From: a virus
Taxonomy: Duplodnaviria; Caudoviricetes
Direction: 5' to 3' (one strand)
DNA length: 58,106 nucleotides
Virus record (IMG/VR): IMGVR_UViG_3300030329_004093
Span: 1 to 58,106 of that record
Shown piece after piece: positions 16,906 to 39,500 of this stretch. Numbering within the stretch: the first letter of the stretch is position 1; every line of letters starts with the position of its first letter. The notes beneath the pieces were generated by a model, which saw only the letters and a program-made list of their open reading frames with translations, did no database searches and was not told where the DNA came from. The translations under genes and the position numbers were made by a program.

Positions 16906-17620
16906 TAATTTTCTTAGGCCTTTCGGCAGCTTCAATCATATCATCTGTTAATCCTTGAAACTGAACTCCAGTAATCTGCTGAACCTTAGCTGAATTCTTA
17001 TCTTCTAAGTCAAGTATATCAGATAGTTTAAATAGAGCTTTAAGTTTAGTATCATCTTTCTCAGCAGTTTGAGCTACTATTTTAATATTTTCTAATACCA
17101 TTTTTTCACTTATTTCTAACTCTTCTAGTATAGGTTTTAATTCTTCTTTCACAGCAGTCTTAATCCTTTCTGTTTTAATTAAATTAACAGCTTTCATCCT
17201 AGCGTATCGTTTATTATTAGTAGGAAAAGCCTTAACATATGCATCCTCAGGGGATAAACCTTGTGATATATAAGTAACAAACAACTCCTCATTAGCTGTC
17301 ATATTCCTTCTGTTAGCTACTACTTGTTCAGGAGTAGAATTACCTCCAAACGAGTATATATTAGTTCTTCTATCTGTATCCATATAAGTATCTTTTGAGA
17401 CCGTAAAAGTACCAGTACATGTACCTATATAGGCCATATCTCCGTTCTTTCTAAGCATAGTACCTTTACGAAGTATCTGTATAATAGACTCATCATCTGC
17501 AAGTACCCAATCTCCTATATTGCCTTTTCTCCAGTCCTCTACGACTTTAATAGAAGGAGGTACTTCAGATAGAGTTTCATATACAATGTGATTAACTCTA
17601 TTTACCTTGTAAGTTCTCAC
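16895..17620 (-). CDS. Putative terminase small subunit
   Basis: C-terminal half has HTH-like AYVKAFP and helical LKALFKLSDIL segment typical of TerS; upstream of TerL. Confidence 0.55.
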   Translation of the reverse strand: MRTYKVNRVNHIVYETLSEVPPSIKVVEDWRKGNIGDWVLADDESIIQILRKGTMLRKNGDMAYIGTCTGTFTVSKDTYMDTDRRTNIYSFGGNSTPEQVVANRRNMTANEELFVTYISQGLSPEDAYVKAFPTNNKRYARMKAVNLIKTERIKTAVKEELKPILEELEISEKMVLENIKIVAQTAEKDDTKLKALFKLSDILDLEDKNSAKVQQITGVQFQGLTDDMIEAAERPKKINGK

Positions 17621-17856
17621 TAAGATTCTCCAACTTCATATAAGTCACCTAATAGCTTTATATCTTCATCATCCCAATAATCAGCCAAATAATCAAAGTT
17701 AGAATCTAGTGGGAGTGCTTCTCCAACTTCATCTATAACCTCAACTATATATTCAACTGTATCACTATCAGGATTGACAGCTATTTCAAGTGTATATATA
17801 AGAGTACCTTTCTTTAGTTTCTTACGTTCTTTTTTAAGTTTATCTGATTTAATCAT
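17620..17856 (-). CDS. Hypothetical protein, first gene of late operon
   Basis: 78-aa ORF, basic N-terminus and acidic C-terminus; no SD; TATATTAC 3 nt upstream. Confidence 0.5.
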   Translation of the reverse strand: MIKSDKLKKERKKLKKGTLIYTLEIAVNPDSDTVEYIVEVIDEVGEALPLDSNFDYLADYWDDEDIKLLGDLYEVGES

Positions 17857-17859
17857 GTA

Positions 17860-18300
17860 GTAATATAAGAAATGTGAATCAATTTCCCAAAAAAAATTGA
17901 TGAACTCGTATCAAAAGGGCGTAGGTTCCCCCTGATAAAAAAAATTAATTTTAAATTTCACTTAAGCCAGTACTCTAAGACCCATACCTAAGCTTATATT
18001 AAAACAATTTGTGGAACTATCGGGGACAAACCTGAACTCTATTTGAGGGGCTACCCAACTTCTGAACCTCGAAGCAGAACCATTGCAGGGGTACTTAAAG
18101 GCTGATAAATTATAAATATTACAACTTGTTCCGCATCAAATTTACTGTAGCTTAATTTAAAAACCAAATAAAAAAGGTTAACTTTCAAAAATTTGTACAA
18201 AATAATATACACACCAATTATACTTTTAAGGCCACCCAATTTCCCTTTTTTTATATGGGAATTGCGTTATAATTCATTTCAATTAGGAATAGAAAGGACG
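17860..18300. promoter_or_regulatory. Divergent control region between late (minus) and early (plus) blocks
   Basis: Strand switch; AT-rich tracts; TATAAT at ~18267; hairpin CAATTTCCC...GGGAATTG at ~18237-18265. Confidence 0.55.
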
Positions 18301-18304
18301 ACAT

Positions 18305-18646
18305 ATGTCAGATTACATCGCACTTAAACTTGAGAAGAGAGAGTGGACTTCCAAGACAACAGGTGCTTCAGGTTCCACTTATTGCTTCAACAACCAGAAC
18401 AACTCTACTATTAATTTTGGTGGTCATAGCGTATCATTGAGCATACTTGACGGTACTACTCAACAAGCCAAAGAGCCAAAAGTATTTGGTTGGGTTAATG
18501 AGATGACTGATGCACAGTATGAGGCATTTATAGAAGAATATGGTGACACAGTATATATTCATACACCAACAAAAGAAATGATTACTCAACAAGAGTATGA
18601 TGAACTTGGAGTTGAAGAAACTGTACAACCAACAGCATCATTTTAG
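18305..18646 (+). CDS. Hypothetical early protein
   Basis: 113 aa, SD AAAGGA; first plus-strand gene. Confidence 0.6.
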   Translation: MSDYIALKLEKREWTSKTTGASGSTYCFNNQNNSTINFGGHSVSLSILDGTTQQAKEPKVFGWVNEMTDAQYEAFIEEYGDTVYIHTPTKEMITQQEYDELGVEETVQPTASF

Positions 18647-18822
18647 TTAGATGAGCCATACATTGTCATAGGTAGCAGGTGATAGAGTTACCGTTATGTA
18701 TCATCTTTGAGGGTTTAGATAGTGTATTTCCACGCTATCTATTCCCTCGCATACTCTACTATATATATAAATAAACAGCCCCTAAACAAGGGCATATTTA
18801 AAAGAATTAGATGTAAACAATT

Positions 18823-19590
18823 ATGTGGTGGTATCGCATCGCATATAAAACACAAGGATAAGTGTAGTAATACATAAAAGTAGCAACATGTTACAGTGTT
18901 GTAGCGCCTGTAAAGGTCCAGAGATACAAGCCTTGTTCGTTAATGTCTCAAACTCAGTGCCTAACGGTGAGAGTGACAGATGTTAGTACCCAAGATGGTA
19001 ATTGGGTTGAGTGTGGTGACACACAATAGATTAAAAGGTAGGAGTTTAAGCTGAACTATGGTGGTAAGGCTGTTCTCCATTGTTAAGGTTGTATGTCTCG
19101 AGTGATTGAGATGTATATAATTATGCCTGAAACAAATTGTTTGATGATACCAGTCATTAAATAAAGGTATTGAGTGTAGTATTTATTGTCCCAAAAGGAT
19201 AGTAAGCTACTTGTTAAGCACTCGAACCAACTTGCCCGTTAATTAACTTAACTAAATAGCCTAATCGGCTAACAATTAAATGAATAACGATAAAAAACGT
19301 AAAAGACTTAACACGATTAGGAGCATAGGGCTCTAATACCTCACACATTGTGAATGAGGTGCATCAAAGACCACAAGTCGGAGATGTTTTGTGATGAAAG
19401 ACACTAGTAGTGGGTCGCTCCTGCTATCTGCGTTTATTAGTCGCTGAAATAACCTAATCGATAAGAGTGATAGTCTATAACTATTGAGCCTGTTGTGATA
19501 CTAGTGTGCAAACATTAGTGGATACGAGACAAACCCTCGGGAACTTAACTCAAAAGACACAACATTAAAGAGTATAATCTCAACTCTCAA
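18823..19590 (+). ncRNA. GOLLD-like large structured RNA (boundaries approximate)
   Basis: ~770 nt ORF-free with many hairpins. GAGTGTAGTATTTATTGTCCCAAAAGGATAGTAAGCTAC...GCACTC and the 3' end TACTAGTGTGCAAACATTAGTGGATA...AAAGAGTATAATCTCAACTCT resemble my recollection of the conserved GOLLD 3' domain; phage location near a tRNA fits. Confidence 0.65.
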
Positions 19591-19614
19591 ATTTATTTAA
19601 AAGGAGGGAATGCA

Positions 19615-20046
19615 ATGTCAGATAAATGTATCATTTGTGATGTAGATGGCACTGTAGCACTAATGAATGGTAAAAGAACACCATTTGAATGGGATAAAGT
19701 GATGTTAGATGACCCTAATAATTGGGTTATATCATTAATAAGAGGATATTTATCATCAAATCCTGGTGTTAACCTGATATTCTTGTCAGGTAGAAGCGAA
19801 GAATGTTATGGACTAACAGATAAATGGCTTCAAGATTGGTTTGGAGATATTAAATATTCATTATTTATGAGACCACTAGACCAATTGTATGAACCAGATG
19901 CTAAAATTAAGTATGAATTGTATTATAAACATATCAGACCTAATTATAATGTACAATTTGTAGTCGATGACAGAAAACAAGTAGTTGAGATGTGGCGAAG
20001 AGTAGCAGGTCTACCAGTTGCTCAAGTTGCAGAAGGTAACTTTTAA
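19615..20046 (+). CDS. HAD-family polynucleotide 3'-phosphatase (T4 PNKP/PseT phosphatase-domain-like)
   Basis: DVDGT, SGR, LFMRP, K, VVDDRKQVVEMWR, QVAEGNF motifs; no kinase domain. Confidence 0.85.
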   Translation: MSDKCIICDVDGTVALMNGKRTPFEWDKVMLDDPNNWVISLIRGYLSSNPGVNLIFLSGRSEECYGLTDKWLQDWFGDIKYSLFMRPLDQLYEPDAKIKYELYYKHIRPNYNVQFVVDDRKQVVEMWRRVAGLPVAQVAEGNF

Positions 20047-20062
20047 CTAACACGAGGTGAAG

Positions 20063-20188
20063 ATGATTAAATTCTTCAATAAAGACCCATTACATTTAAT
20101 ATCAATATATTTAAATATAGTACTAAATATGTTGTTAATAACAGGTATCATATGTTTATTTAAATGGTGTTGGTCTCTCGTGCTATAA
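20063..20188 (+). CDS. Small membrane peptide (41 aa)
   Basis: SD GAGGTG; hydrophobic MIKFFNKDPLHLISIYLNIVLNMLLITGIICLFKWCWSLVL. Confidence 0.45.
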   Translation: MIKFFNKDPLHLISIYLNIVLNMLLITGIICLFKWCWSLVL

Positions 20189-20272
20189 ATATTGTCTAAT
20201 GACAATGTTGTGGCTCGTAAGACAGAAAGGCTCGTTCTTAATTGAGTGGGCCTTTCAAACATAAGGAGGAAT

Positions 20273-20515
20273 ATGAAATTAAAAAGAAAATTTGAATCAT
20301 TAATCACTATTCACGGTGAGATATTAAACAGCAATTGCCCTGAATGTGATGGAGAAGGTGTATTTTTAGATGATTATACTAATGCAAGTGGTGGTGAAAT
20401 GATACCAAGACTATGTGGATATTGTGATGGTGATGGTGTTATTACTGAAGATAAGGTTGATGCTGTAAATTATGATAAAGAAGGACAACCTCATATAATT
20501 TATAAAAATAAATAA
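20273..20515 (+). CDS. DnaJ-type zinc-finger protein
   Basis: Two CxxCxGxG repeats (CPECDGEG, CGYCDGDG); SD AAGGAGG before ATG 20273. Confidence 0.65.
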   Translation: MKLKRKFESLITIHGEILNSNCPECDGEGVFLDDYTNASGGEMIPRLCGYCDGDGVITEDKVDAVNYDKEGQPHIIYKNK

Positions 20516-20529
20516 AAGGAGTACGAGCT

Positions 20530-20985
20530 ATGGGTATGGATATAAGTGGTAAAAATCCTGTAAGTAAAACAGGTGATTATTTTAGAAATAATTGTTGGTG
20601 GTGGAGACCATTATGGAGTTATTGCTATCATGTAGCACCTGATTTAATAGATGAAGATACATATGTAGGTGGTGGCTATAATGATGGGTGTGGATTAGAT
20701 GCAAAAGGCGCTGCCAAATTAGCTGTCATATTAGAGACTAAAATAGCAGAAGGACATACTAAAATATGGAAAAAAGAAAGAGATTTATATCTTGATTCTT
20801 TAGAAGATGAGAATTGTGGTGTATGTAATAATAACAATAGAGGGCATAAGAAAAAGAAAGATTGCTTTGCTTGTAAAGGTAAAGGAACAAGAGATGCCTG
20901 GGAGAAATCTTATCCATTTGATGTAGAGAATGTAGAGAATTTTGCTAAATTTCTTATAGATAGTGGTGGATTTGAAATATGGTAA
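20530..20985 (+). CDS. Conserved phage protein with CxxC zinc ribbon
   Basis: YFRNNCWWWRPLW, CGVC...CFACKGKG, GGFEIW C-terminus. Confidence 0.65.
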   Translation: MGMDISGKNPVSKTGDYFRNNCWWWRPLWSYCYHVAPDLIDEDTYVGGGYNDGCGLDAKGAAKLAVILETKIAEGHTKIWKKERDLYLDSLEDENCGVCNNNNRGHKKKKDCFACKGKGTRDAWEKSYPFDVENVENFAKFLIDSGGFEIW

Positions 20986-20994
20986 AGTAATTAT

Positions 20995-21065
20995 AGCGGA
21001 GGAGTGAAACGGTTCACGCTTGGCTCATAACCAAGAAATATTGGGTTCGACTCCCATCTCCGCAA
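20995..21065 (+). tRNA. tRNA-Met(CAT), initiator-like, atypical
   Basis: Acceptor (A)GCGGAG/CTCCGC(A), D arm GTGA/TCAC, anticodon arm CTTGG-CTCATAA-CCAAG, T loop TTCGACT; no encoded CCA. Confidence 0.85.
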
Positions 21066-21660
21066 CAAAATTGAGTATGATTAGCGTCATACAAAATAGT
21101 TGTCAGGTGGACAAAATACTCACGACTGTTAAACATTGGTAGTCCTAGGATGCCATAGAGTACATCTCACGTATTGCCACAACTCCTGAAACAGGATGAA
21201 CTAACTACCTAGACGATTTATCGACTAAACTGTTAGCAGTCTTTAAGCACAGATATGTGTAAACCGCAGTTGATTCCTTCTTAGACTGGCTGTGGACTAG
21301 AATTATATAATTGAGAGTCAAGATATAAGCCTTGTTCAATATTACGAGATTAGTATATTGATGAAAAATGGTGTAGTGTACTTAATTGCCCACCTGTAAT
21401 GATGAAGTTGGGTCATGACCTGAATGCCAGTTGAGCATAGTATTTTCAACTCTGGTCATCAGATAAAGACTGGCAGCCATGCAATAAAACTAGACACGAG
21501 TGGCGGTCTAGCACGACTCTCATATTATTGAGAGCCAATAACTGGTCCTCCTCAAGAGCCACCTCCAACAAAGCTGAGGTGAGAGGGTAAATAAGTCCTT
21601 ATGAAGTACCTGAAAATGAACTGGTGAAGAAGGCAAAGGAATATGTGAGGCTCTCATACA

Positions 21661-21883
21661 TTTGAGGGAGAGTATATATCGTAAGAATATACAACAATGT
21701 TAATAAGACCCAAGTTCACAGATATTATTAGCTTTGTGTTTCACTCCCTCAATAAACTTATAAACCGAGGGATAGGAGGGAGATATACCAGGTACAGAGG
21801 AAGCGCTACTTAGTAGCAAACCAGAAGTCGCTGTATATCGAGGAAAAAGTGTAGGTTTATATAAATTAGTTTGAGGGAGAGTA
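21661..21883 (+). repeat. 14-nt direct repeat TTTGAGGGAGAGTA (21661-21674 and 21870-21883)
   Basis: Exact match read from sequence. Confidence 0.8.
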
Positions 21884-21963
21884 ACGTGGATAGAGAGAAC
21901 TTAGGTTCTGTGAGGGGAGGGTGCAAATCCTTCGTGTAAAACTAATAAAATTGTATACAACAG

Positions 21964-22031
21964 ATAAAGCAGGTGAGCTTGGATAGCACTCATCGCGTTG
22001 AGGAGGGTTCGATTCCTTTAACCTGCTTTAT
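21964..22031 (+). ncRNA. Minimal tRNA-like element
   Basis: 11-bp closing stem ATAAAGCAGGT/ACCTGCTTTAT, T arm GAGGG-TTCGATT-CCTTT, small arms GCTTGGATAGC and CTCATCGCGTTGAG. Confidence 0.5.
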
Positions 22032-22166
22032 TGATTAAAGAATTACAGGTAGTTGCCGTAATGAATCTAGAGTCCTGTAATAACAGAGATAGTTTAGAAA
22101 TAAACTGTAATGTCAATGAGGGTAGGTAGTCGGATACTTACCCTCAAAATTTAAAAGGAGAGTCAC

Positions 22167-22469
22167 ATGATAAAGTTAAAAGATGTATTAGATTTTATCT
22201 TAGCAACTAAAGACAACGAAGTTCTTGTTGAAATAAATGATGCTGTTAAAGATAAATTTAAAACTAACTCCAGTTATCTTAAATGTAAGCTAATGCCTGG
22301 TGATAAAGTTAGAATAAATGGTAGTGGTAAAATAGAAAAAGGCACTATTATTAAAGTTAATAGAACAAGAGCTTTAGTTAAATGCTGGAATGAAGAAAAA
22401 CAATGGAATGTAAGATATAGCGTTCCATTTACAATGATAACAAGGGAGGCAAATGGCAAAGAAATATAA
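22167..22469 (+). CDS. Hypothetical protein with SH3/KOW-like C-terminus
   Basis: PGDKVRI...GTIIKVNRTRALV; SD AAGGAG. Confidence 0.6.
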   Translation: MIKLKDVLDFILATKDNEVLVEINDAVKDKFKTNSSYLKCKLMPGDKVRINGSGKIEKGTIIKVNRTRALVKCWNEEKQWNVRYSVPFTMITREANGKEI

Positions 22470-22737
22470 TTTATTGAACCCAGAAGAAAGAACTGCTTAC
22501 TGGACTGAGTTTGTTAAAAAGAGATTAATAGGTAAGACTATTGTAGATGTAGAATATTTAACTAATAGTGAATGTAAAGATTTAGACTGGTATTGTAGAC
22601 CAGTAGCATTCAAATTAAATGATGGTTCTTGGGTATATTCTCAAAAAGATGATGAAGGTAATGATGGTGGTGCTTTATACTATCATCAAGAAGATGATTG
22701 TACAGTATTTCCTGTATTGGGAAGAGAGGATGGATAA
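22453..22737 (+). CDS. Conserved phage hypothetical protein
   Basis: LIGKTIVDVEY...DDEGNDGGAL motif; SD GGAGG. Confidence 0.6.
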   Translation: MAKKYNLLNPEERTAYWTEFVKKRLIGKTIVDVEYLTNSECKDLDWYCRPVAFKLNDGSWVYSQKDDEGNDGGALYYHQEDDCTVFPVLGREDG

Positions 22738-22907
22738 TGGTTACAGAAAATCAAATAAAAGACCAAATAGAAATAGCTATAACCAAAGCAGAACAAATGG
22801 AATATTGGGACGGAGAGCCTGATTTACAATATAATGATGGTTATATAAGAGCTTTGAGATGGGTTATAGGTAAAGCTTATTCACTTTATAATAAGGAGGA
22901 TATATAA
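22737..22907 (+). CDS. Hypothetical protein
   Basis: Start MVTENQ via TAATG; GYIRALRWVIG motif. Confidence 0.5.
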   Translation: MVTENQIKDQIEIAITKAEQMEYWDGEPDLQYNDGYIRALRWVIGKAYSLYNKEDI

Positions 22908-23077
22908 TGATAAATGAAGAACAATGGAATGAATATAGAGACGTACAAGATAGTGGTATGTTTAACATGTTCAGCCCAAGAGCAAGAGAAATGACATCTT
23001 TAACAAAAGATGAATGGATATATATCCTTAAAAATTATAATAAACTAAAAAAACAATATGAAGGAGACGAGTCGTGA
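22907..23077 (+). CDS. Small DUF5049-like phage protein (56 aa)
   Basis: Manual translation MINEEQWNEYRDVQDSGMFNMF...; SD AAGGAGG. Confidence 0.55.
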   Translation: MINEEQWNEYRDVQDSGMFNMFSPRAREMTSLTKDEWIYILKNYNKLKKQYEGDES

Positions 23078-23595
23078 AATCATTATCAAAGCAACAACGT
23101 GATTACTTTATTGATAGAATAAGAGGTGAAATAAATAAAGAAATATCAATACTAGAGCAAATACATGCAACTGGTATAGAAACAGTAGCTAATAAACAAT
23201 ACAAGTCTTATTTAAAAGAGACTGGCTTAGGTAAAATCTTTAAAGAATATGAAGCAGCTGAAACTAAATGGAATAAAGTAAGAGATAGAATGCAGACTAT
23301 ATGCAAAGCATTACATGAGAAGACTGAATATCCAGGTAAAGATAGTTATTTTCATGCACCATATGATAGTCAAGGTGTTGAAAAGTTCTTAAGAGAGATA
23401 TGCAATGCATTAGCAAGAGATAATTTCATTAATACTCCTAAAGGTAAAAGATTAAAAGAGCTGGAAGATAAAAGAACAGCTGCAATCGATACTGTTATGG
23501 GTATGACTGAAACTGAACCTCTTGTTCAAGCTCTTAATAAAATCTTTAAAGGCACTAATGTTCCTTTATTAGGAGGTAGCAATGGCCAAAAGTAA
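23074..23595 (+). CDS. Hypothetical helical protein
   Basis: 173-aa ORF, GTG start with SD GGAG. Confidence 0.6.
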   Translation: MKSLSKQQRDYFIDRIRGEINKEISILEQIHATGIETVANKQYKSYLKETGLGKIFKEYEAAETKWNKVRDRMQTICKALHEKTEYPGKDSYFHAPYDSQGVEKFLREICNALARDNFINTPKGKRLKELEDKRTAAIDTVMGMTETEPLVQALNKIFKGTNVPLLGGSNGQK

Positions 23596-23752
23596 AATAA
23601 ATACTTGGGTAAGTTATCTTTGGAGAATGAATAAAGATGAAAGCGATGAAGTATTGTGCGAAATAAGAAACTTTTTATTTCAATTTAGAAACAATGCTCA
23701 AAAAGAATATTCATTAATTAAGGAGGATTCTAATGGCAAAGAAGATGAGTAA
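23582..23752 (+). CDS. Hypothetical protein (56 aa)
   Basis: SD AGGAGG before ATG 23582; fills the gap in the operon. Confidence 0.45.
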   Translation: MAKSKINTWVSYLWRMNKDESDEVLCEIRNFLFQFRNNAQKEYSLIKEDSNGKEDE

Positions 23753-23972
23753 ACAAGAGAAAGTCTTAATGTATCTTCAAACTTATGGAAGTATTACTCC
23801 TCAGGATGCTTATGAGCTCTTTCAATCCATGCGATTGGGAGCTCTAATCCATAACTTGAGACATAACGAGCCTTATTATAATATAACATCTAAGTTAGAA
23901 GGTAAAGCTGGTTATGCAAGATACACACTTGAAGATGGAGTATATAAGGATTATGATTCGGATAATTCATAA
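23733..23972 (+). CDS. Winged helix-turn-helix DNA-binding protein
   Basis: QEKVLMYLQTYGSITPQDAYELF..MRLGALIHNLR...YARYTL, typical small phage wHTH. Confidence 0.7.
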   Translation: MAKKMSKQEKVLMYLQTYGSITPQDAYELFQSMRLGALIHNLRHNEPYYNITSKLEGKAGYARYTLEDGVYKDYDSDNS

Positions 23973-24013
23973 TTTTAACGTAAATTACAAGGCTGTCAAA
24001 TAAAGGAGAATAA

Positions 24014-24770: not shown

Positions 24771-25289
24771 ATGGCTATAACAGTAACTAAGTCAAGTGGT
24801 GGATATGATGAAGGTTGGAAAACTGTAACTATATCTAGCGCTGTAAAGGGTGATTTTAGTGGTTCTAAATATATAGACCTTTTCTTTGAAACTTATCCAG
24901 AAACTCTTAAATGTAGAATCTGGGAAGCTAGAAATAAAGATGGAGAGGAATTTTCTGTATCAAATATGGTAAGATATTCTAATCCAACTGTATTGGAAGA
25001 AATGGACAAAGATGGAACAACAGCTGCAAGTCTTGATGATTCGCCAACAGGTTTAAAAGGCAAATCTCTTCAAGTGTTATTCTATAAAAAGGATAATGGA
25101 TATTCTGATATATCTCAAAAAGTAGCTCCAGCTGAACCATTTCAAAACATAGTAGATAATTTTACCGAAGATAGAATATCTAGGATAAAACAATCTGCAG
25201 AGAAATATCAAGCTAACAGAAAGGTAGTATCTAATGGCGTAGAAACAACTGATTCAACATCAGATTCTACTAATGATATGCCTTGGTAA
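24771..25289 (+). CDS. Putative single-stranded DNA-binding protein
   Basis: Follows Sak4-like gene; beta-rich N-terminus; acidic tail ending DMPW. Confidence 0.6.
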   Translation: MAITVTKSSGGYDEGWKTVTISSAVKGDFSGSKYIDLFFETYPETLKCRIWEARNKDGEEFSVSNMVRYSNPTVLEEMDKDGTTAASLDDSPTGLKGKSLQVLFYKKDNGYSDISQKVAPAEPFQNIVDNFTEDRISRIKQSAEKYQANRKVVSNGVETTDSTSDSTNDMPW

Positions 25290-29824: not shown

Positions 29825-30002
29825 AGAAAAAAGAATGGCAAAAGAATTTGAAAACAGTATTATTAAATGCGCTATTATTGATTTTTTAATAGAAGAAATA
29901 ATGCTAAAGGGTAGTTATGAAAAGCTTTCTTATTGGGATAAAACTGCTGTATCGAAATTAGTTGGTAAAAAACTTTATTTATTTGGAAGAGTTACTGCTT
30001 AA
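29817..30002 (+). CDS. Hypothetical protein
   Basis: Last plus-strand ORF, SD GGAG; converges with 29999..33598. Confidence 0.45.
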   Translation: MNREKRMAKEFENSIIKCAIIDFLIEEIMLKGSYEKLSYWDKTAVSKLVGKKLYLFGRVTA

Positions 30003-33000
30003 TCTTCATCAATCAAACTCTGTAAAGCATCCTTAGATAAACCATGAGTTGTTGCACTTGGGAAAACTGGTCTTGCAATATCCATAAAACTATTAGCTGC
30101 TAACTCACCTCTTTCTAAAGCAATATGGAATATTAATAATAACCAATCCATTGTCCATGTTACTCCATATCCAAATGGTGCATTCATAACAAATTTTCTC
30201 ATAAATCTTGATGTTTCTTCCCACTCATCATCATCGTCATCAAAACCTGCTGCTGCTTGGATAGCAAATACTAAAATACTCGCTAATCCTTGAGCATACA
30301 TTGAAGGTAACCCTCTAATCATACCACCTAAACCTACTGCTCTAGCTGTATTTTTTATAACACTTAACATAGCTAGATTACCTAAAGGACCCCATATTAC
30401 TAAATCCATTAACGCTGCTGTTAAAACTCCAGTTGTCAGAAACTTATACATTTGAGCTACTTCTTTTTGAGCTATATTCATCTTATTATAATTATGTAAA
30501 CTCCAATAAGAATACTTGCCAGGAACTGCTCCTTTTTTAATTATTTTAGTAACTGCTTTGGCCCAAGGAAAGAATCCAGTTTTATGCAAATCAACAAGTC
30601 CCATTTGAGTTATAGCGGCGTTTTTTGTAACTCTCCAATCACGACCATTCTTTTGAAATCCCCAATAATTAAATTTTTGTAACCATTTACCTAAACTTCC
30701 ATAACCTGCAGCTCCCATATCAGTGCTAGATAAACCCATATTTGAATACTTAGATATTTTCCTGCCTATTTCCATAGCTTTAGATAGCTCTTCACCTTCT
30801 AATTCCCACATATGAACGCTACTATCTATATATCCTAATCTTTGAGCTTGTAGTACACCTACTATAAATGATATACTTCTAATCCAAGATTCACCTGCAG
30901 ACATAGTTAAATTAGCTGATTTATATATCTCACCCTTAGCTTTCCACCAAACAGATAATCCCTTATATATATTAGCAGGAGTTTTATATTTCCAATTAAA
31001 CATAGAAGCGAAATGATTAATCTCATATTCCTTAGTTAGTGCATATTCAACCCAAGTATTTAAAATTGCATCTAATTTTTTACTTATAATATTTTGTTTT
31101 CTTATTTTAATATCATCTTTAGCTAATATTTTATTAACTTCTAGATTATAAGCTGGTGAGTTTTTCATTATATCTTTAACAAGAGCTCTAAATTCTAATA
31201 AAGATAGTGTATTAACCATATCTTCTTTAGATACACCTTCTGTAGCTAGTTTAACTTTCTTCATTTGAGCAATTAATGCACTTTTACTCATATTGGAAAA
31301 CATTTCTTTTGTAGCTGGATGATTTAACATAGCAGCATATATCTTCTCAACACTATGATTATCCATATTAAATCCAACTTTATCATTAACAAGAGATTTG
31401 CTAAAGAAATCTTGGAAAGCAGCAACTCCAGATTTAGCTATAAACATAGCAACTTCTTCAGGATGTTGATTCATGTATTCCTGAGCATCTTGAACAGCAT
31501 TAAAATTCCAATCTTGAACTGTTTGCATAATAGCTACTTTATTGATTATAGCTGTGCTCATTCCTCCTAAAAATGTAGCACTAAGTACTTTATTAATTCT
31601 ATTAGATATTCTTTGTATATTATGAACATCCATTCCTAAGGCATTGGCTATTTTTTGGTCAGATATACCTAAAGGACCTTCAACAGTAGGTGAATTAAAT
31701 GGTACTTTATAGTAATTTATTATACCTTTTTGAACAGATTCACTTTTAGTAAGCAATAAAGCTTCTAGCATTTCAGCTGTTAGTTTATTCCTATTAATGG
31801 CAGCAAATGTTTCATTTAAATGTTCATAATAAACAGCTTTATCTACATTAAGATTACGTATATCAAATGCATTAGTAACTCTCTTTAAATGTTTATGATG
31901 CCTAACAAATGGCATTTCCTCGCCTCTTACCATATCTTCTGGGTATATACCATCTTTCATTTCACTTATATTTCTAGCTCTTTTTAACTGGCTTTGTGTG
32001 ATACTTAATTTTTCATTTACATATTCAAGTTCATTTCTAGGAGATTCAAATTTCGCACTAGAATAAGGTAAATTATTTTCTATAACTTTTATTATTTGGT
32101 TTCTTCTTTTTTTCCAGCCTGCTTCTTCTTTCTCTAATCCATCTATATAACTATCCCACATAAGTTTAAAGGTTTGATTGGGATACCTTATTGGAAAGTG
32201 ATTTCTTCTATATTCAGATTCATTTGCTTGATTTCTAAACATTTCAACTTTAGCAATATTGCCAAAAGTTTCTTTAAAAGTATTATATTTTTCCATATAA
32301 GATGTTTTATGCTTATCGTCTAAATATTTTATTCTATCTAATATTTTCTTCCTATCTTTAATTTTCCATTCTTCAAAAAATAAAGTAAAAACCTCACCTT
32401 CACTTAAATCAGGAAAATGTTTTCTTAATGCTGATTTCATTGCATCAACAGATTCTAAAAACTCTTTTCTTGAATGTTTATATAAAGCATCTTCAATTTT
32501 TCTCGCTTCCTTAGTCATACTTAAGAATGATTTTATTTGAGTTTTAGTAAAAGGTATATTAAAAGAACCGTTTCTAAAATCTTTCAAATCTACTGGGTCA
32601 CTAAATGCAAATATAGGCTTTTTAGTTCCTTCATAAAACTCACCTGTTGTACCCCAGTTTTTATTTGCTTTAAATTGGGTACCATCAAATTCAATTTCAC
32701 CTATCATGTATCTTATAAAGAACTCTATCATTTTTTGCTTTTTAGTTAGCATTTCTCCCTTAGGTAGTTTCCATTTTTTTATATTAAGAACCATATCTTC
32801 TAAATCTTTAAAAATATCAGACATACCTTTAAATTCAACTTTAACAGATTTACCTTTTATTCTTTTAGTAACTGTTCTTTTATACATGAAATTACCAATA
32901 TCATTTTCTACAGATTCATAGTATTTATCCATTTGTTGAGAAAACTTAAAATATGCTCCACTTCTTTCTTTTTTACCTAATTCTTTTGGAGTAGTCCATC

Positions 33001-33598
33001 TAACCATAAATTTACCAAAAGCTCCTTTAGCAAATGTATTCTCATCAACAAAATCTTCTTTAGCAGTAGCCCAATTCCATGCTTTTCTATATATAACTTT
33101 CAAGGTTCCTACAGGTTGTACTCTTAAAATTTGTTTTAATTGTTCTTCTTTACTTAATTTATCGAAATCTTTTTTCTCTAAACCACCTTTACCAAATAAA
33201 GATGACTCTATAGATTCACTGCTAGGGGCCCATGGAAGAGCGCTTTTTCCCTTTTTACCAGAAGGCATGTGTCTCCATAACTCTTCTTGTACCATATCTT
33301 TCATTAATGGATTAGCAATAAATAGAGTAGCTATTTTAAATGCAAGTAAATATCTTTCACCTTGAGTACCATATTGTTGGTTAATAAAATCTTCTATCTC
33401 ATTCTCTGGAATAACATCATATAAAAGCTCTTTTATAGCTTCTTCACTAGCGGTTTTAAAATGCTCATCTACTTGCTGAACAAGTTCTTTCATGCCTATT
33501 ACATCAGCTTCTGTTATAATAGCATCTTGTATAGCCTGTTCAATAACATCTAAATCATTATGACCATCTTTTACTATTTGACAATTACTTTTAGCCAC
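29999..33598 (-). CDS. Large internal virion/ejection protein
   Basis: 1199 aa, helical, hydrophobic C-terminal segments; directly downstream of the giant RNAP gene. Confidence 0.55.
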   Translation of the reverse strand: MAKSNCQIVKDGHNDLDVIEQAIQDAIITEADVIGMKELVQQVDEHFKTASEEAIKELLYDVIPENEIEDFINQQYGTQGERYLLAFKIATLFIANPLMKDMVQEELWRHMPSGKKGKSALPWAPSSESIESSLFGKGGLEKKDFDKLSKEEQLKQILRVQPVGTLKVIYRKAWNWATAKEDFVDENTFAKGAFGKFMVRWTTPKELGKKERSGAYFKFSQQMDKYYESVENDIGNFMYKRTVTKRIKGKSVKVEFKGMSDIFKDLEDMVLNIKKWKLPKGEMLTKKQKMIEFFIRYMIGEIEFDGTQFKANKNWGTTGEFYEGTKKPIFAFSDPVDLKDFRNGSFNIPFTKTQIKSFLSMTKEARKIEDALYKHSRKEFLESVDAMKSALRKHFPDLSEGEVFTLFFEEWKIKDRKKILDRIKYLDDKHKTSYMEKYNTFKETFGNIAKVEMFRNQANESEYRRNHFPIRYPNQTFKLMWDSYIDGLEKEEAGWKKRRNQIIKVIENNLPYSSAKFESPRNELEYVNEKLSITQSQLKRARNISEMKDGIYPEDMVRGEEMPFVRHHKHLKRVTNAFDIRNLNVDKAVYYEHLNETFAAINRNKLTAEMLEALLLTKSESVQKGIINYYKVPFNSPTVEGPLGISDQKIANALGMDVHNIQRISNRINKVLSATFLGGMSTAIINKVAIMQTVQDWNFNAVQDAQEYMNQHPEEVAMFIAKSGVAAFQDFFSKSLVNDKVGFNMDNHSVEKIYAAMLNHPATKEMFSNMSKSALIAQMKKVKLATEGVSKEDMVNTLSLLEFRALVKDIMKNSPAYNLEVNKILAKDDIKIRKQNIISKKLDAILNTWVEYALTKEYEINHFASMFNWKYKTPANIYKGLSVWWKAKGEIYKSANLTMSAGESWIRSISFIVGVLQAQRLGYIDSSVHMWELEGEELSKAMEIGRKISKYSNMGLSSTDMGAAGYGSLGKWLQKFNYWGFQKNGRDWRVTKNAAITQMGLVDLHKTGFFPWAKAVTKIIKKGAVPGKYSYWSLHNYNKMNIAQKEVAQMYKFLTTGVLTAALMDLVIWGPLGNLAMLSVIKNTARAVGLGGMIRGLPSMYAQGLASILVFAIQAAAGFDDDDDEWEETSRFMRKFVMNAPFGYGVTWTMDWLLLIFHIALERGELAANSFMDIARPVFPSATTHGLSKDALQSLIDED

Positions 33599-36500
33599 AA
33601 ACTTCCTCTATATGTTTTTCAATCATTAAATCACCCACTCTATTAAATCTTTTTTCCATGTTCCTATTATTAGCAACTTCTTTATTATACAGCTCAGCAA
33701 ATTTACTCAATATTTTAGCATCTAACAATTGCTTTTCTGATTTAGACCTACTAGCTGGAGGTATATGAGTTCTTGTTTTAGTACCATCCCATCCTTCAAG
33801 GAAATGATATGTAGCAGCTACTTGAGCTACCCTTGATAATGCTTTAAAATCTTTATCAAAATTTGTTTTCCAAACTACAATTGGTTCATTTCTTTCCATA
33901 AAAGTAGGACTATCTGCTGATTTATCATTTGCATCTATAATACCTTTAAATCTACCCAACATATTTCTAGCATATAATTCACCTTTATCCCACTCAGATT
34001 TAGCCCAAGCACTCTTTTTACCCTGAACTAATCCTGATTTAGTATCCTCTAAAAATGCATCTCTTAAATATTGCTGCGCTATAGAAGGTAATAGGAAGTA
34101 TTCAACTGCTCTATCATGTGCATTTCTGTGTACATTATAATGCAATTTAATAGGACTACCATCAGAACCTATAATATTATATTTATTTTGCCATATTTCA
34201 TACTCTACATAAGGAGCAATAGCTATCTCTTCTATAGGAGTTAGTATGTTTGATTTAAAAGATACTCTTATATCTGGAGCAATACCTTTTATATAAGACT
34301 CTCTGTCTCTGGTATACTGATAGTAAGTAGAACTCTCATCTATTGTATCACTTAATCTTAACTTACCTTCTTCAAAATCAAATCCACTTCTAACTTTATT
34401 AGGAGTTTTCAAAAATTTCAAGTATGGTTTAAGCTTTTTAAATGCTGTTGCTGAGATAGTTTGACCTGCTTGAGGATGACCTTCTCCATATTTAAATAAT
34501 GAACGAGATAAACCATCATATGTATAGTTCCATTGTTGCAATAACATGTATTTAGCATTATCTACAGCAGCCTGAAGATATATCCTGAGTATTTTAGATA
34601 CCGTAAATGTTGGTATTTTACCATCTATTTTACCTACATTAAATTTAACCTTTTCATCTGGTTGCTTTAATTCAACTCTACCTACACCTGTTACGTTTAT
34701 ATGGTCAATTGTATTGACAAGTAATCCATATATAGATTGTATATTAACTATTTCACCTTGTTTATTATAGGTCATAGCTTCCATTAGCCTAAACCTATCA
34801 TCAGCCTTAGATAAATCTAATTGCCCTAATTTAGAATCAAATTCATTTAAATTAATACCACCTACCTCAAGTTCTTTAAAGAATTCAATAAAAGTATCTT
34901 CTATCTCTGATACAAATTTACCATCTGTATACTCATAAGGTAGCATTTCAAGTGATACCCAATCTCCATCATAATCTCCTTCAAGTCTTGCAAATACATC
35001 ATAAGGACTAAGCTCTATTAATCCACCTCTATTAAATAATCTTTTAATTCTAATTATCATAGCTCCACCAGCATGTGGTATAGGAGACCTAGCCATAAAC
35101 ATATTTACTGGATTTTCTGCAAGCCATTCATTTATTTCAGAAACATCTGTATCCTCAGCAACTTTCAAAGATATATTTTTAGCTGTTGCAAACTTAAGTA
35201 ACACTTGTTCTGCATTAGATTTCGAAAGCGCTGCTTCCCCTCTTTTTAAATCTCCTCTTAAATTAGGAGCTAAGTCAGCTTTAGTTCCTGGTTGTCTTTT
35301 AATCTTTAAGGTAGGAGTCATTTCTTTTGTTTGATATAAAACATTTAACATTGGTTCTAAATGCCATACAAAACCAAGTTTATTTAATTCTACTAGAGTA
35401 TTTCTAAATCCTATTTCATCATTTATATCTATTTTCTCAATTATATCAGATACTCTTTTAGATGCTGATTTAACAGTGGTGTCAGAGAAATCTCTATATA
35501 TACCAGCTATTTGAGCCTTAACATTAGATAGTATGTGATTTTTAAATGCACTTATTACTCTGGAGTCTGTTATGTGATTATACCACTGCATCATATGATT
35601 GCCAGTAACAGCATATTTTTCATCAGCATATTTAGTAAAACCTATCTCTCTTCCACTTACAGTAATACCTTTTTTACTAGTAGCTCCACCATACACCCAC
35701 TTAGCTTCATCTTGTGTTATAATCATATCCATACCTGCTGCTTCACCATCAACGAAGTTACCATTTTCATCTACTCTAGCAAGTAAAGTATCTCCCTCCC
35801 ATATCTCTATGCCCGATTCGGGCTGATAATGTTGGTGTTTAACTGCAACACCTTCCCCATCCCTATTCTTATATATAACAGTTTTAGCTTTAGCTTGTCC
35901 AGGTGTTAATCCATGATGTAATTCAAATGCTTCAAATAGTTGCCTAGCAGTAATACTACCACCATCTCCTATATAAAGATTGTCTACAGTCTCTACTAAT
36001 CTATATCCTTTGTTTGTTTTCTCTCTATATTTAAATACTAATTTTTCTTTATCTGCGATATACATATTAACATCAGTCATAGATGGGCTAATAGTCATAG
36101 GAGTAAAAGGTAGCTTTATTCTTTTACCTACAGTAGCAGCATCCATATCTAAATAATCAGGAAATATACTAGTCATAGCACTATGAACAGCTAATTCCTG
36201 AGCTGAATCAAATCCCATACTTTTATAATAAGCTTTATGATTATCAGTAACATCTACTATTAACAGCTTATCTGAATCACCTCTTGACATAACTATAGTT
36301 TTACTATGCTGAGTATAAAGCTCATCATTTAAAGTAGAAAGCTCATCTGCTGTAAAGAATCCATATCTAGACTTTTTATTCTGAAGAACATCTTTACCGC
36401 TTATAAAGGATATTAATCCACCACGAATACTCGTTAAATGTGTATACTTTTCATTATTATTAAGCTCAAATGGTGTTATTTTATCTGTAGAATTATTCTT

Positions 36501-39500
36501 TCCTCCAAGTTTGCTATCTGGTCCTTTTAATTCTATGCTCATTTCCTTAGCTACAGTACCTGCAAAATTACCTTCTGAATCAGTTATTACATCGTATTTT
36601 GTAATAATAGCATAAAAATTATCTCTAGCATTCATTTTACCACCTTCAGAATTGATAGTTAAACTGCTGAATAATCTATTAAACTTTTTAATTTGTTTTC
36701 TTGTCATACTAGGAGGGTAGCTTGCTCTTTTACCTATAATTTTAGAAACTTCTTTAACCCAAGTATCGAATTTATTCTCTATACTTAAATCTCTCATTAT
36801 ACTATAAGCTAGTTTATTTAATTGTTTAGCTACGTCAAAATCAACATGTACTCCAAACTCATCTCTATATGCAAAATCATTAGAACTTAAAGACCTTTCG
36901 TCACTTTCATTTTTATCTATTAAACCAGCCCAGCCTTCTCTATTTGCTCTCTCTATTTCAGTTAAAAAGCTAGATACTCCCATATCTATTTCTTCCTGAG
37001 GAACTAAAGTTTCTTGGGCTTTTCCAACAGCTGTATCTTTATAAGCTAATGAAGAATGCTTAGAGAACATAGTATCATACCAGAAAGAAAACTTAGAATG
37101 CAATTCAGGTGGTAACATGCTCATCATAGCATGTCTAAAATATTCAGGATGCACATAAAACTTTCTGGCTAATGCTTTATTTGTTTCATTCATCACTATA
37201 TTTAAATCTAACCATGCATTTTTAAATATTCTATTTATCTCTATATTTTTAGACAAATTAGGGTCTTCAATTTTCTGGTATCTTATCTGGTTATTAATTT
37301 TATTACTAAGTTGATTTAAATCTTTAGGAGTAGATGATTCGGCATCATGCTTTTCAATTACTTTCTGCATTCTAAACGTCTGATATGAAAGGACCCCTGG
37401 TATATTAAGGTATGTAATTTTCATAGTCTGACCTTTGCTCCAAGAAGGAGTGAGTATTTCATAATCAATCAAACCTTGTTTCTTCATATCTTTAACTATA
37501 ATATTTAAATCTTTTATAAATGGACCAGTTTTACCTTTTATCATAGGAAGCTCAATAGTCTCACCTGTTTCTTTTGATTCAACTTTCTTTATCTCTCTGT
37601 AATGCTTTAATACTAATTTTTGAGCTTCAGACCCTCTCCATAAAACTGCATTAGTTTTATTATTATGCTGTGGTTCATAATAAGCTTCATATAAATCTTT
37701 ACCAATCTCATCTTTTTGTGCATTACTTAAAAAATCAAATTTATCTACAATATTATTTACTATACTGCTTGCTTTTTCAACTCTAGACATTGTTTCTCCA
37801 CGACCATCTGGAAAACTTGCAGTTGAGAGATGTTCTCTGAATACATTCATCAAATAATTCCAAGCAGATTCATCAGCAGTATTGTAAAAGCTAAATGCTA
37901 AATCATTTCCTTGAATCATAAGATTAACTGCACCTAATCCAATATGTAATGATGGCTTTCCGTTTGCTGCTGAACGTTGTATTGAATTTAATATACGTAT
38001 TTTATTTAAACTTTTCTTTAAAGTGACTAAGTTTTTAGCAGGGCCTAATACGCCTGGAAGAATCTCATCTATCTGACTATCAATATTTTCTTTAGTAGCA
38101 TCTTCAGTTACAATATCTTTCATAATTTCAAGTGATTTATTTCTAAACTCAGTAATAGGTATAACTTGTCTTGTTAAATTACCTATCCTTTTTAAAAGTC
38201 GTTCTTGAAATATCATTCCAATAGAACCTGATAATTGCATTTTTCTTATAGATAAAAATTCATTAAAATCTTTGTCAAATTCATTATTCTCTTTTTCAAT
38301 CTCTTTAAAATGAACTAAGTTTTTAAATCTATTTCTTAAACCAAAAATAAAACCATAAAAACCTCTATCATTATCTCTGAATGTCTCTATTAGCTTTTTC
38401 TTAACAATACCTTTTTTTCCTTTTATAACAACATTCAAGCTATCCTCTAAAAGTATTTGTAATTCATAATTTACCTGATTTAATTTTATCTTAGGTATTT
38501 TAAACATTCGGCTTAATTCAATATCATTAATTTTCATTAAATCATTTTTAGAAGATATTCTATTTTTTAGAACTTGATTGTATTTAAAAATCTTTTCGTT
38601 AAGCCAATCTTCTATAGCAGAATCTTTTAAAGCTCCTTTATTTGACAGGATGAAATCAAAAGCATCAACCTCTTCTATATATCTTATATTTAAAAGATTA
38701 GAATAAAGTTCTTTAGGCGCTCTTCCAGTAACTATTTCATCTAATATTTCTAGAGACATCTTATTCAAGGTATGAGTTAATATTTTACTTGAATTAGGAG
38801 CAAAGTAATCAAACATTATATTACCAGCTTCTCTGTAACCTATATTCGTATTAGCTTGCTCAACAGAAACGAAGGATTTATTCCATATTATATCACTAAG
38901 TTTCTCCCAATTTAAATTTGAATACTCTTTAGTTAATGCATATATATATAATTTTTCAATTTCAGATATTCCAGATGATGATTTCATATACTTCTCTGAT
39001 GACGATGATGAATCAGATAAATATCTTTTTATATTTTCAGGAGAAAAATCTAATTTATCAACAGCATTTCCAAAATGTGATATATTTTTATTTAACCACT
39101 TTGTTTTAATAACAGACATTATCTTAACTTGACCATTCTCGCTATTAACTATATTATTTAAATGTTTAGATATTAAATTAATTGCATCATCAGTCCATGT
39201 AACCTCAAATACATTCAAACTTTGACCTGCAGGCAATCCGTTTAAAAGCTTACCGTACCAACCATATCCTAAAGATTTAACTACTTTTTCTTCTAATACT
39301 TCAATATCTTTTGTGATTAAATCTGTTTCACCAGTTAATCCAGTTTGCTTTTCTTCATTTCTTTTTTTTATATATTTATCTGGATTTTCAACATACTCAT
39401 AAATTTCATCTTTTATTATTTCATCATTAGCAGCTATAACATCAGTCTGATATTCATGAGCAATATCTGTATCTTCTATATCAGGAGGTAATGTCTGAAC

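Follow-up and report, generated by a model that had tools for sequence, protein, structure and literature searches.

A proposed phage non-coding-RNA island composed of a GOLLD RNA linked to a stand-alone Pnkp-type phosphatase gene and a tRNA, and of a separable array of structured RNA modules

The window analyzed here is the whole of the IMG/VR virus record IMGVR_UViG_3300030329_004093 (58,106 bp; Duplodnaviria, Caudoviricetes), which CheckV rated as 100% complete. In its rightward gene block, no convincing open reading frame (ORF) was found in 18647-19614 and 20986-22166, leaving about 2.15 kb of the 3.86 kb at 18305-22166 non-coding. We propose, with a probability of roughly 0.6, that this region is a phage non-coding-RNA island of two separately inherited units: a GOLLD RNA with a phosphatase gene and a tRNA gene (about 18.8-21.06 kb), and an array of structured RNA modules (21.07-22.15 kb). 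A preliminary description of this DNA, made from its letters alone, had reported about 2 kb of non-coding sequence in the first 4 kb of the block, a hairpin in front of a GOLLD-like RNA, a PNKP-type phosphatase, two Zn-finger genes, a tRNA and a second non-coding block holding an RNA array, and all of these were recovered in the present analysis. It had also joined them into a single operon; of that claim the linkage of GOLLD, phosphatase and tRNA stood, whereas the array turned out to be a separable unit.

The GOLLD RNA extends over about 770 nt of the + strand (18816..19586) and has a variable 5' half and a conserved 3' half. The conserved half was matched by the Rfam model RF02032 at 19166-19586 (+) with 192.7 bits, the gathering score being 150, at E = 8.3e-53 and over the full model (positions 1-416 of 416), and the element is thus a true GOLLD. 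The 5' half shows similarity to four related sequences (G025, L029, L004 and G021) from about 18816 onwards. The features that characterize the family were all found, namely a less conserved 5' region joined to a conserved 3' region with about 800 nt in all, a phage context (terminase genes), and a tRNA-Met 1.4 kb downstream. When the window was searched with Rfam at gathering thresholds, two matches were obtained, this GOLLD and the tRNA (20995-21065). GOLLD RNAs have been reported since 2009, and their atomic structure is a 14-mer cage, an assembly established for env-38 only; this cryo-electron microscopy representative came from a marine sample and lies downstream of a Met-tRNA, and in that preprint the function and the protein partner of GOLLD are given as not known (10.1101/2024.12.08.627333). 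The copy in the window resembles the GOLLD described there (RF02032) in the full-length match of its conserved 3' domain, its variable 5' half, its length, its carriage by a phage and its position near a tRNA-Met. It differs in that a stand-alone Pnkp-type phosphatase gene follows, here and in about half of the marine subclade, and in that ARAGORN found no tRNA embedded in the window's copy. In two relatives (L257, 3311-3400; L292, 439-533) ARAGORN called a 'tRNA-Stop(tta)' of 90-95 nt about 600-700 nt upstream of the GOLLD 3' motif; these calls lie inside or just before the GOLLD 5' region and are reminiscent of reports that some GOLLD RNAs contain embedded tRNAs. A search of 151 sampled Bacilli genomes with the GOLLD model (8 candidates scored per genome), aimed at the phosphatase link beyond the marine clade, gave no matches, but the control genomes were equally unmatched, and the result has no weight in either direction.

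The ribosome-binding site of the next gene begins about 10 nt past the end of GOLLD. This gene (19615..20046, +) encodes a protein of 143 aa that matches the Pfam family HAD_PNKP (PF25109) with 138.9 bits against a cut-off of 27.6 (E = 1.7e-40), residues 4-143 of 143 being aligned to profile positions 2-143 of 143; it also matches PHROG 505 (E = 6e-45) and the PDB entries 5uj0 and 1ltq (E about 1e-20). Its residues 3-143 align to residues 159-301 of T4 polynucleotide kinase (PDB 1ltq), and DVDGT, SGR, K and DDR are in register with 1ltq and 5uj0. We take the DxDGT nucleophile motif, the S/T motif, the Lys and the DD to be the HAD catalytic residues. The gene therefore encodes a complete, stand-alone 3'-phosphatase of the T4 Pnkp type. 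Compared with T4 Pnkp/PseT, which acts with Rnl1 in tRNA repair, the C-terminal HAD phosphatase domain is homologous from end to end with DxDGT, SGR, K and DD kept, but the window's enzyme has 143 aa instead of 301 and no kinase domain. The N-terminal P-loop 5'-kinase domain is not in this ORF, and a profile search gave no AAA_33 match anywhere in the genome. RNA ligases of the Rnl2 and RtcB types (PF09414, PF01139) also had no matches when the complete genome of 58 kb was searched at E up to 0.1; the same result for Rnl1-type ligases (PF09511) is a weak negative because the control for this profile matched no control genome. The remark in the preliminary description that neither an RNA ligase nor a kinase could be recognized is consistent with these searches. 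As the genome searches gave neither a kinase nor a ligase or RtcB, the phage does not encode the classical heal-and-seal pathway. The tRNA gene of this unit is a tRNA-Met (anticodon CAT; 20996..21064, +) without an encoded CCA, which was called by ARAGORN and scored 46.2 bits with the Rfam tRNA model against a cut-off of 29. In the window two genes for Cys-pair proteins stand between the phosphatase gene and the tRNA, and the array begins 4 nt after it.

To place this arrangement among related viruses, relatives were gathered through the 151-aa protein encoded just upstream of the tRNA (68 loci) and through RNA motifs, and 47 records were then searched for GOLLD and PF25109. GOLLD was present in 6 of the 47 and PF25109 in 5, four of which were GOLLD-positive (G007, G021, G044 and G045). 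The remaining one (G046), which has a 301-aa form, had come in through a search with the phosphatase itself and was left out of the count of GOLLD-less records. Among the 40 other relatives lacking GOLLD, no phosphatase gene was found. A second sample was obtained with a 22-nt GOLLD word, which matched 21 viral stretches and led to 16 new searchable records; all 16 contained GOLLD and six contained PF25109, in each case downstream and on the same strand. Taking all viral records with GOLLD together, the window included, the phosphatase gene lies just downstream on the same strand in 11 of 23, with gaps of 29-611 nt. The co-occurrence of GOLLD, phosphatase and tRNA thus holds in relatives (for the phosphatase, 11/23 GOLLD records versus 0/40 without GOLLD). 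In metagenome contigs the GOLLD word was found in 52 stretches, and the phosphatase accompanied it in 11 of the 32 whose downstream flank reaches 1000 nt or more and in 3 of the 20 with less; all 14 of these phosphatase genes are on the GOLLD strand, 13 downstream and one upstream. When the first three downstream ORFs were compared across 53 distinct GOLLD-motif loci, the phosphatase was the largest family with 15 members, and the next had 8, with no second enzyme family recurring at these positions; in the phosphatase-less loci of this set no other RNA-end enzyme was found downstream of GOLLD, and only small unassigned ORFs recurred.

The phosphatases of L004, L029 and G021 are 37-41% identical to that of the window. 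Neighbor genes and tRNA position vary between the GOLLD-phosphatase loci, and the tRNA is found within about 20 nt past the phosphatase stop codon in L004, L029, L273, L265 and L300 and upstream of GOLLD in G021, L252 and L288. The low identity of the phosphatases, together with the differing neighbors and tRNA positions, indicates that the linkage of GOLLD and phosphatase is old. Directly 3' of the phosphatase gene in L029 (5310-5386; also in L030 and L300), where other relatives carry a tRNA-Met, ARAGORN called an odd tRNA with a four-letter anticodon (tata). No mention of a GOLLD-phosphatase linkage was found in the literature, where a search for GOLLD and polynucleotide kinase gave unrelated plant papers only, and the words 'phosphatase' and 'kinase' have no occurrence in the available text of the preprint of Kretsch et al. 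2024 (10.1101/2024.12.08.627333). The linkage therefore looks new within the reach of the literature searched; the association of GOLLD with tRNAs has already been published (10.1101/2024.12.08.627333; PMC5737381). A recurrent, strand-locked neighbor with a defined chemistry, the removal of 3'-phosphates, offers a concrete biochemical handle on the function of GOLLD.

The second unit, at 21.07-22.15 kb, consists of about eight RNA modules that follow one another head to tail without an intervening ORF, and every module has a closing helix of its own. The whole block (21066-22160) is non-coding and structured. In Rfam 15 no family matched it (21066-22166) at the gathering score, nor at E up to 10 when 17800-22600 and 21060-22170 were searched, and the best sub-threshold scores were 15-22 bits (E 0.76 or worse). 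At least three of the modules, designated A, CD and E, are conserved structured RNA families with compensatory changes and no Rfam match. They look new as judged against Rfam, a comparison that stands apart from the 8,495 models of candidate structured RNAs which Fremin and Kyrpides (2023) derived from IMG/VR (PMC10690425). These candidates resemble the array modules in their data source and in being short covarying intergenic RNAs of uncultured viruses, and a number of them look like tRNAs or lie immediately in front of genes.

Module A (21068..21320, +) has about 250 nt and nine helices. In an alignment of eight sequences, its 52 pairs were kept as pairs in 95.9% of the cells and 16 showed compensatory changes, a result which none of 500 shuffles reached and for which slid controls gave at most 5. 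Module CD (21523..21666, +) is defined by the core GAGAGCCAAUAACUGGUCC...UGUAAGUCC[variable]AGGCAAAGGAAUAUGUGAGGCUCUC, with two inserted hairpins in the window's copy; the covariance model R1 detected this one copy in the window (58.4 bits, E = 4.9e-14). The 19-nt word at the 3' side of CD matched at least 119 stretches of viral contigs, and at least 113 distinct full copies were recognized elsewhere, in marine phage contigs and mostly alone between genes. In an alignment of 64 CD sequences the closing helix of about 12 bp covaries strongly, and 8 of the 17 pairs of the motif show compensatory changes; one pair of columns in this helix reads AU in 40 sequences, UA in 19, GC in 4 and UG in 1, and is broken in none. 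No variation is seen in the two internal loops or in a short inner helix, it being noted that the D side of CD was partly selected by the search word and that the C side was required only to have at most 2 mismatches to a 13-nt word; a third helix closes the variable apex. The wobble pairs fit the + (gene-sense) strand, for which G-U and U-G cells far outnumber A-C and C-A cells. Among 17 relatives that had been fetched regardless of CD, nine carry one or two copies. With its presence on more than 100 uncultured marine phage contigs and a core as invariant as that of a ribozyme or riboswitch, CD is a good candidate for structural and functional study.

In L013 (1205-1310 and 6911-7016), and also in G006, G008 and G012, two CD copies stand several kb apart, with different closing helices and the same core. 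In genome contigs the 3' word of CD was found in nine stretches, of which one (L203) contains the full motif and the rest are chance matches. The copy in L203 (6166-6268, -) lies on a 26.7-kb contig binned in a Flavobacteriales metagenome-assembled genome, which may be a phage contig, and this single match is too thin to name a host.

Module E (21756..21867, +), with the pattern UAUAAACCGAGG...GGGAGA[variable hairpin]CGAGGAAAAAGUGUAGGUUUAUAUA, was found in 22 stretches of viral contigs as 22 distinct copies. It has an 8-bp closing helix, a covarying inner helix and two conserved purine-rich loops, and 7 of 14 pairs are compensatory in an alignment of 13 sequences. Module F (22033..22152, +; fold z -5.27) reads UUACAGG[hairpin]CCUGUAAU, followed by a short hairpin and a terminal GC-rich hairpin that precedes the ribosome-binding site of the ORF at 22167-22469; homologues 79-90% identical occur in L003, L005, L004, L029 and L082, and the terminal hairpin shows compensatory changes. 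Module B (21321..21523, +), of about 200 nt and closed by UUGAGAGUC/GACUCUCA, has partial homologues in L035 and L003. The possibility that B is a paralogue of CD was rejected, as the CD covariance model does not detect it.

The remaining modules are recognized by their folds. Module G (21661..21753, +) is a hairpin-closed element (UUGAGGGAG/CUCCCUCAA) with a fold of -25.8 kcal/mol (z -5.61, 0/200 shuffles), and no homologue of it was seen among the loci fetched. Module X (21867..21946, +) is a small junction RNA with a T-arm-like hairpin, a weak fold (z -2.10) and no Rfam match; in L020 and L026 it lies within the variable loop of CD. Module T (21963..22032, +; fold z -3.34) is a tRNA-like cloverleaf with a 12-bp closing stem, a D-like hairpin, an arm of 4 bp and 6 nt, and a T arm with GGUUCGAUUCC, and among the loci fetched it had no homologue. 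It does not score as a tRNA, since the tRNA-Sec model gave 18.5 bits against a cut-off of 47 and ARAGORN was silent on both T and X. The array was also considered as a set of decayed tRNA genes, and this was rejected, since a likeness to tRNA is confined to T and X, which ARAGORN and Rfam do not score as tRNAs.

The word GAGG occurs 14 times at 21576-22118, in the 3' half of the array, which corresponds to 12.7 per kb of the array block against 1.8-2.6 genome-wide (0/2000 shuffles), and the loops predicted for modules E, X, T and CD hold many of the copies. Both CD (AAGGA-AU-AUG-UGA, 21640-21653) and E (GAGG-AAAAA-GUG-UAG, 21839-21856) have in their invariant 3' strand what resembles a ribosome-binding word, with a start codon after it and a stop codon immediately behind the start. 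That these start-stop words engage ribosomes is speculation.

Comparison with relatives shows that the array is a mosaic and that it is inherited apart from GOLLD. When 21066-22166 was compared with relatives by blastn, the 250-nt piece A was kept at 70-83% identity and short near-identical cores were found reordered: the order of modules is A, CD, pieces of B, E, F in L003, A, CD, F, E in L029, and A, F, E in L004, and L020 has CD only, with X inside. The 3' motif of module A was found in 13 stretches of viral contigs, and six of these contigs were searched for GOLLD, which was present in G007, G044 and G045 and absent from G001, G006 and G011. The latter three carry module A and companions with neither GOLLD nor phosphatase. 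Conversely, the GOLLD-bearing G021, G024 and G025 are not among the contigs with the module A motif. As A occurs without GOLLD and GOLLD without A, the array and the GOLLD cassette have been gained and lost separately.

Contigs assembled from RNA libraries match parts of both units. Across the four libraries compared over 17000-24000, which come from three studies, GOLLD was covered at 18835-19560 in all four, the contigs being mostly at least 99% identical in X7 and X9. Module B was covered in two of the four (21311-21498 in X7, 21303-21451 in X11). The contigs of X7 and X19 end at 19560 and 19559, which is at most a weak hint of a nearby 3' end. No contig covered the phosphatase ORF or modules A, CD, E, X, T and F in these RNA libraries, which is not evidence of absence.

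Since GOLLD, the genes and the array all lie on one strand and the ribosome-binding site of the phosphatase gene follows GOLLD by about 10 nt, the whole block is probably transcribed rightward together with the early and replication genes. The transcript might then be cut into stable RNAs, as in the T4 cluster of tRNAs and stable RNAs. The phosphatase may strip a 3'-phosphate or a 2',3'-cyclic phosphate from RNA ends in a pathway involving GOLLD or the tRNA, where such ends would come from processing or from a host nuclease, and its action would let the 3' end be extended or recharged without a kinase or ligase. By itself the enzyme could not reseal an anticodon break, but it could make an end with a 3'-phosphate or cyclic phosphate extendable, which would be enough for repair of a tRNA 3' end or following any cut by which an end of this type is left. 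The array modules may act on host translation or RNA metabolism, or may punctuate the phage transcripts. If either unit bears on translation or on defense against tRNA-cutting nucleases, the known phage uses of RNA would become wider.

Two known arrangements are closest to this one. The tRNA gene cluster of T4 includes two small stable RNAs (species 1 and 2) of which the function is not known. As there, a phage tRNA is directly followed by further RNA genes in one non-coding block that is presumably co-transcribed and processed; in contrast to T4, the window has one tRNA and about eight non-tRNA modules, which belong to conserved families shuffled between phages and of which CD is widespread as a lone element. 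It has also been reported that ROOL and other large structured phage RNAs lie near tRNAs, with which co-transcription was suggested, and their function is described there as not known (PMC5737381). ROOL resembles the present case in these respects; the array block, however, matches neither ROOL nor another Rfam family and is modular instead of having one conserved architecture.

Several points weigh against the proposed island of two RNA units. Support for expression extends to GOLLD and module B only, and not to A, CD, E, G, X, T and F, and the contigs of the RNA libraries, being assembled, show presence and not strand, ends or level, and may include DNA. The phosphatase is missing from about half of the GOLLD loci (12 of 23 viral records); one of these 12, G061, says nothing on the point, as its GOLLD lies at the contig end. 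Nor are the records independent, since G007 and G045 nearly duplicate each other and the phosphatases of L287 and L300 are 100% identical to those of the window and of L029, respectively. Because the records overlap, are near-duplicated and were counted without correction for phylogeny, the counts overstate the number of independent events. All GOLLD samples belong to one marine subclade chosen by a sequence motif, and not to the GOLLD RNAs of Lactobacillales or mycobacterial phages. The T4 Pnkp phosphatase also acts on DNA 3'-phosphates, and an RNA substrate is thus not the only candidate. Lastly, CD is elsewhere mostly a lone intergenic element at a median of 25 nt before an ORF, which fits a role in cis as well as one in trans.

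This last point leads to the alternative that survives best, although we hold it to be clearly less probable than the island: the array modules, and CD and E in general, may be cis-acting elements, such as processing or stability hairpins, terminators or antiterminators, or translational operators, many of which have accumulated in one long leader. Among the CD copies listed, those with both flanks (n = 89) lie in non-coding blocks with a median of 194 nt; 76 of the 89 share their strand with the next ORF, which stands at the median distance just given, and 79 with the previous one. A ribosome-binding site and an ATG stand directly after E in L004, L026, L033 and L034, in the window, L003 and L005 the terminal hairpin of F directly adjoins the ribosome-binding site of the ORF that follows, and a U-run ends several of the CD closing stems. 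The ribosome-binding-like word, start and stop in the conserved 3' strands of E and CD would also agree with control of translation. However, the ORFs downstream of CD are diverse, the largest family having 8 of 77 members among the copies listed, so CD is not the operator of one gene, and its role as a leader or riboswitch of one particular gene was rejected for this reason. Furthermore, the CD core is near-invariant across phages whose proteins are 35-55% identical, which exceeds the usual constraint on a processing hairpin, the window has eight tandem modules with no ORF between, and module B appears as short contigs of its own in two RNA libraries. The commonest gene upstream of CD, among the copies listed, is SSB-like (24 of 92 upstream ORFs). 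The window has an SSB-like ORF with an acidic tail at 24771-25289, and there is no CD beside this copy.

It is rather unlikely, in our judgment, that GOLLD and the phosphatase are joined merely by hitch-hiking in one mobile accessory cassette, with the enzyme acting on DNA ends or nucleotides, for example in salvage after breakdown of the host DNA. The patchy distribution of the cassette (GOLLD in 6 of 47 relatives), the GOLLD records without phosphatase, the DNA 3'-phosphatase activity of the T4 enzyme and the non-independent sampling would all be expected if this were so. On the other hand, the gene is lacking from all 40 GOLLD-less relatives, and strand and order are kept in 24 of 25 linked loci (11 viral and 14 metagenome loci, the two sets overlapping) despite the 37-41% identity and the differences in flanks and tRNA position. 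The phosphatase gene also lies among RNA genes and away from the replication genes of the window at 24-28 kb.

The preliminary description had gone further than the linkage, and read GOLLD, phosphatase, tRNA and the whole array as one RNA-based system of host takeover or anti-defense, with a shared processing signal, CYCTCAAA(A)TTT, at the end of both non-coding blocks in front of a ribosome-binding site, and with end healing after attack by an anticodon nuclease. We regard this as unlikely. The three components of the first unit are indeed linked in relatives, the enzyme is closely related to the phosphatase domain of T4 Pnkp, and all parts lie on one strand with no strong terminator-like site between them in our scan. 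Nevertheless, the array occurs without GOLLD and phosphatase in G001, G006 and G011, and GOLLD occurs without module A in G021, G024 and G025, so its membership in the same unit failed on co-occurrence. The signal did not hold up either. Copies of the end word do stand, letter for letter, at 19586-19594 and 22143-22152, but CTCAAA(N)TTT is at chance frequency in the window (3 found against 3.62 expected; 73 of 100 shuffles have at least 3) and the word is absent after GOLLD in all five relatives compared (L004, L029, G021, G024 and G025), and CTCAAA(A)TTT was therefore rejected as a processing signal. The CUC at the GOLLD end is part of the conserved terminal GAG...CUC hairpin of the Rfam model. 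What is kept after module F in the window, L003 and L005 is a covarying hairpin followed by (U)CAAAA(A)UUUAA, and this is a feature of module F and not a signal common to both blocks. Another word, TTTGAGGG, is mildly enriched (6 found against 1.65 expected, with 1 of 100 shuffles reaching 6), and its sites form the 5' sides of GAGGG/CCCTC stems that belong to different modules. Finally, with no kinase, RNA ligase or RtcB found in the complete genome, the phage alone could not complete the classical repair of an anticodon break. Host RtcB needs an end that a 3'-phosphatase would remove, which also speaks against this system.

A bolder extension of the island would tie the function of GOLLD to RNA 3'-end phosphate chemistry, with GOLLD, the kinase-less Pnkp phosphatase and the tRNA forming a conserved three-part module that adjoins an array of new RNA families, among which CD would be widespread, near-invariant and ribosome-engaging. 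Taken as a whole, this is a long shot. The phosphatase would clear 3'-phosphate or 2',3'-cyclic phosphate ends on the GOLLD-associated tRNA or on GOLLD itself, and the source of these ends could be host nucleases that target tRNAs or the processing by which GOLLD is released. The host CCA-adding enzyme could then rebuild the 3' end, and therefore no kinase or ligase would be needed. For CD, the GAGG-rich loops and the start-stop words would suggest contact with the ribosome.

A role of the array at the level of DNA, for instance as replication origin, packaging site or promoter cluster, is very improbable: its nearness to the replication genes, its short near-identical words common to diverged phages and the frequent SSB-like gene before CD would agree with such a role, but its helices are kept by compensatory changes, many of the G-U pairs would turn into A-C mismatches if the opposite strand were read, sigma-70-like promoters (15) number fewer than the shuffle mean (21.9), and RNA-library contigs cover module B.

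The proposed two-unit island is flanked and interspersed by several smaller features. The rightward block is opened, 5' of GOLLD, by a 113-aa ORF (18305..18646, +) that has no Pfam or PHROG match; an ORF 38% identical to it sits before GOLLD in L029 and L030. Between it and GOLLD, upstream of the 5' part that GOLLD has in common with its relatives, there is a stable hairpin GAGGG...CCCUC (18708..18749, +), and its fold of -24 kcal/mol (z -8.55, 0/200 shuffles as stable) agrees with the earlier observation of a hairpin at this place. In the 200-nt gap 3' of the phosphatase gene and before the first Cys-pair gene, a hydrophobic 43-aa ORF with its own ribosome-binding-like site is possible (20057..20188, +). 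The first Cys-pair gene (20246..20515, +) encodes a small Cys-rich protein with two CxxCxGxG motifs, the likely true start being the ATG at 20273 after AAGGAGG. Its Pfam scores are just under the cut-off for A2L_zn_ribbon (22.7 against 22.9) and below it for DnaJ_CXXCXGXG (22.5 against 32.7), and it has relatives in L003, L004, L005, L029, L035 and L047. The second (20530..20985, +) is the 151-aa protein used above to gather the 68 related loci in viral contigs; it has a CxxC...CxxCxGxG pattern, is widely conserved in the phage group and has no Pfam or PHROG match. Both small genes, which the preliminary description called Zn-finger genes, carry paired CxxC motifs.

In the genome as a whole, leftward genes, including those for the large and small terminase subunits, reach 17.6 kb, and the rightward block runs from 18.3 kb on, with a Sak4-like protein, the SSB-like ORF, a primase-helicase and a DUF932 protein further in. 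The intergenic region between these divergent blocks (17862-18300, 445 nt) is 79-82% identical in L047 and L026 and partly kept in L058 and L039; RNAalifold predicted long-range pairing in it, with 4 of 31 pairs compensatory and an unfavorable covariation term, and it could hold promoters or another RNA. The public DNA runs with the highest share of the window are marine metagenomes (0.95 and 0.88), one of which may be the sample of origin. A blastn search of cultured phages with the region gave 52 records, matched by pieces of the tRNA and of the PNK gene only, and none covered 80% of the query; the GOLLD region alone had no match there, nor did one CD copy alone at E up to 1, and an isolate is therefore not available. 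Three very large ORFs lie on the - strand at 33591-44822 (3743 aa), 50951-56227 (1758 aa) and 29999-33598 (1199 aa), and Pfam gave no match for any of them at E up to 0.001. The largest of them is, presumably, of the size of the virion RNA polymerase of N4-like phages, a likeness in size only. The genes of the window use strong ribosome-binding sites of the AAGGAG type.

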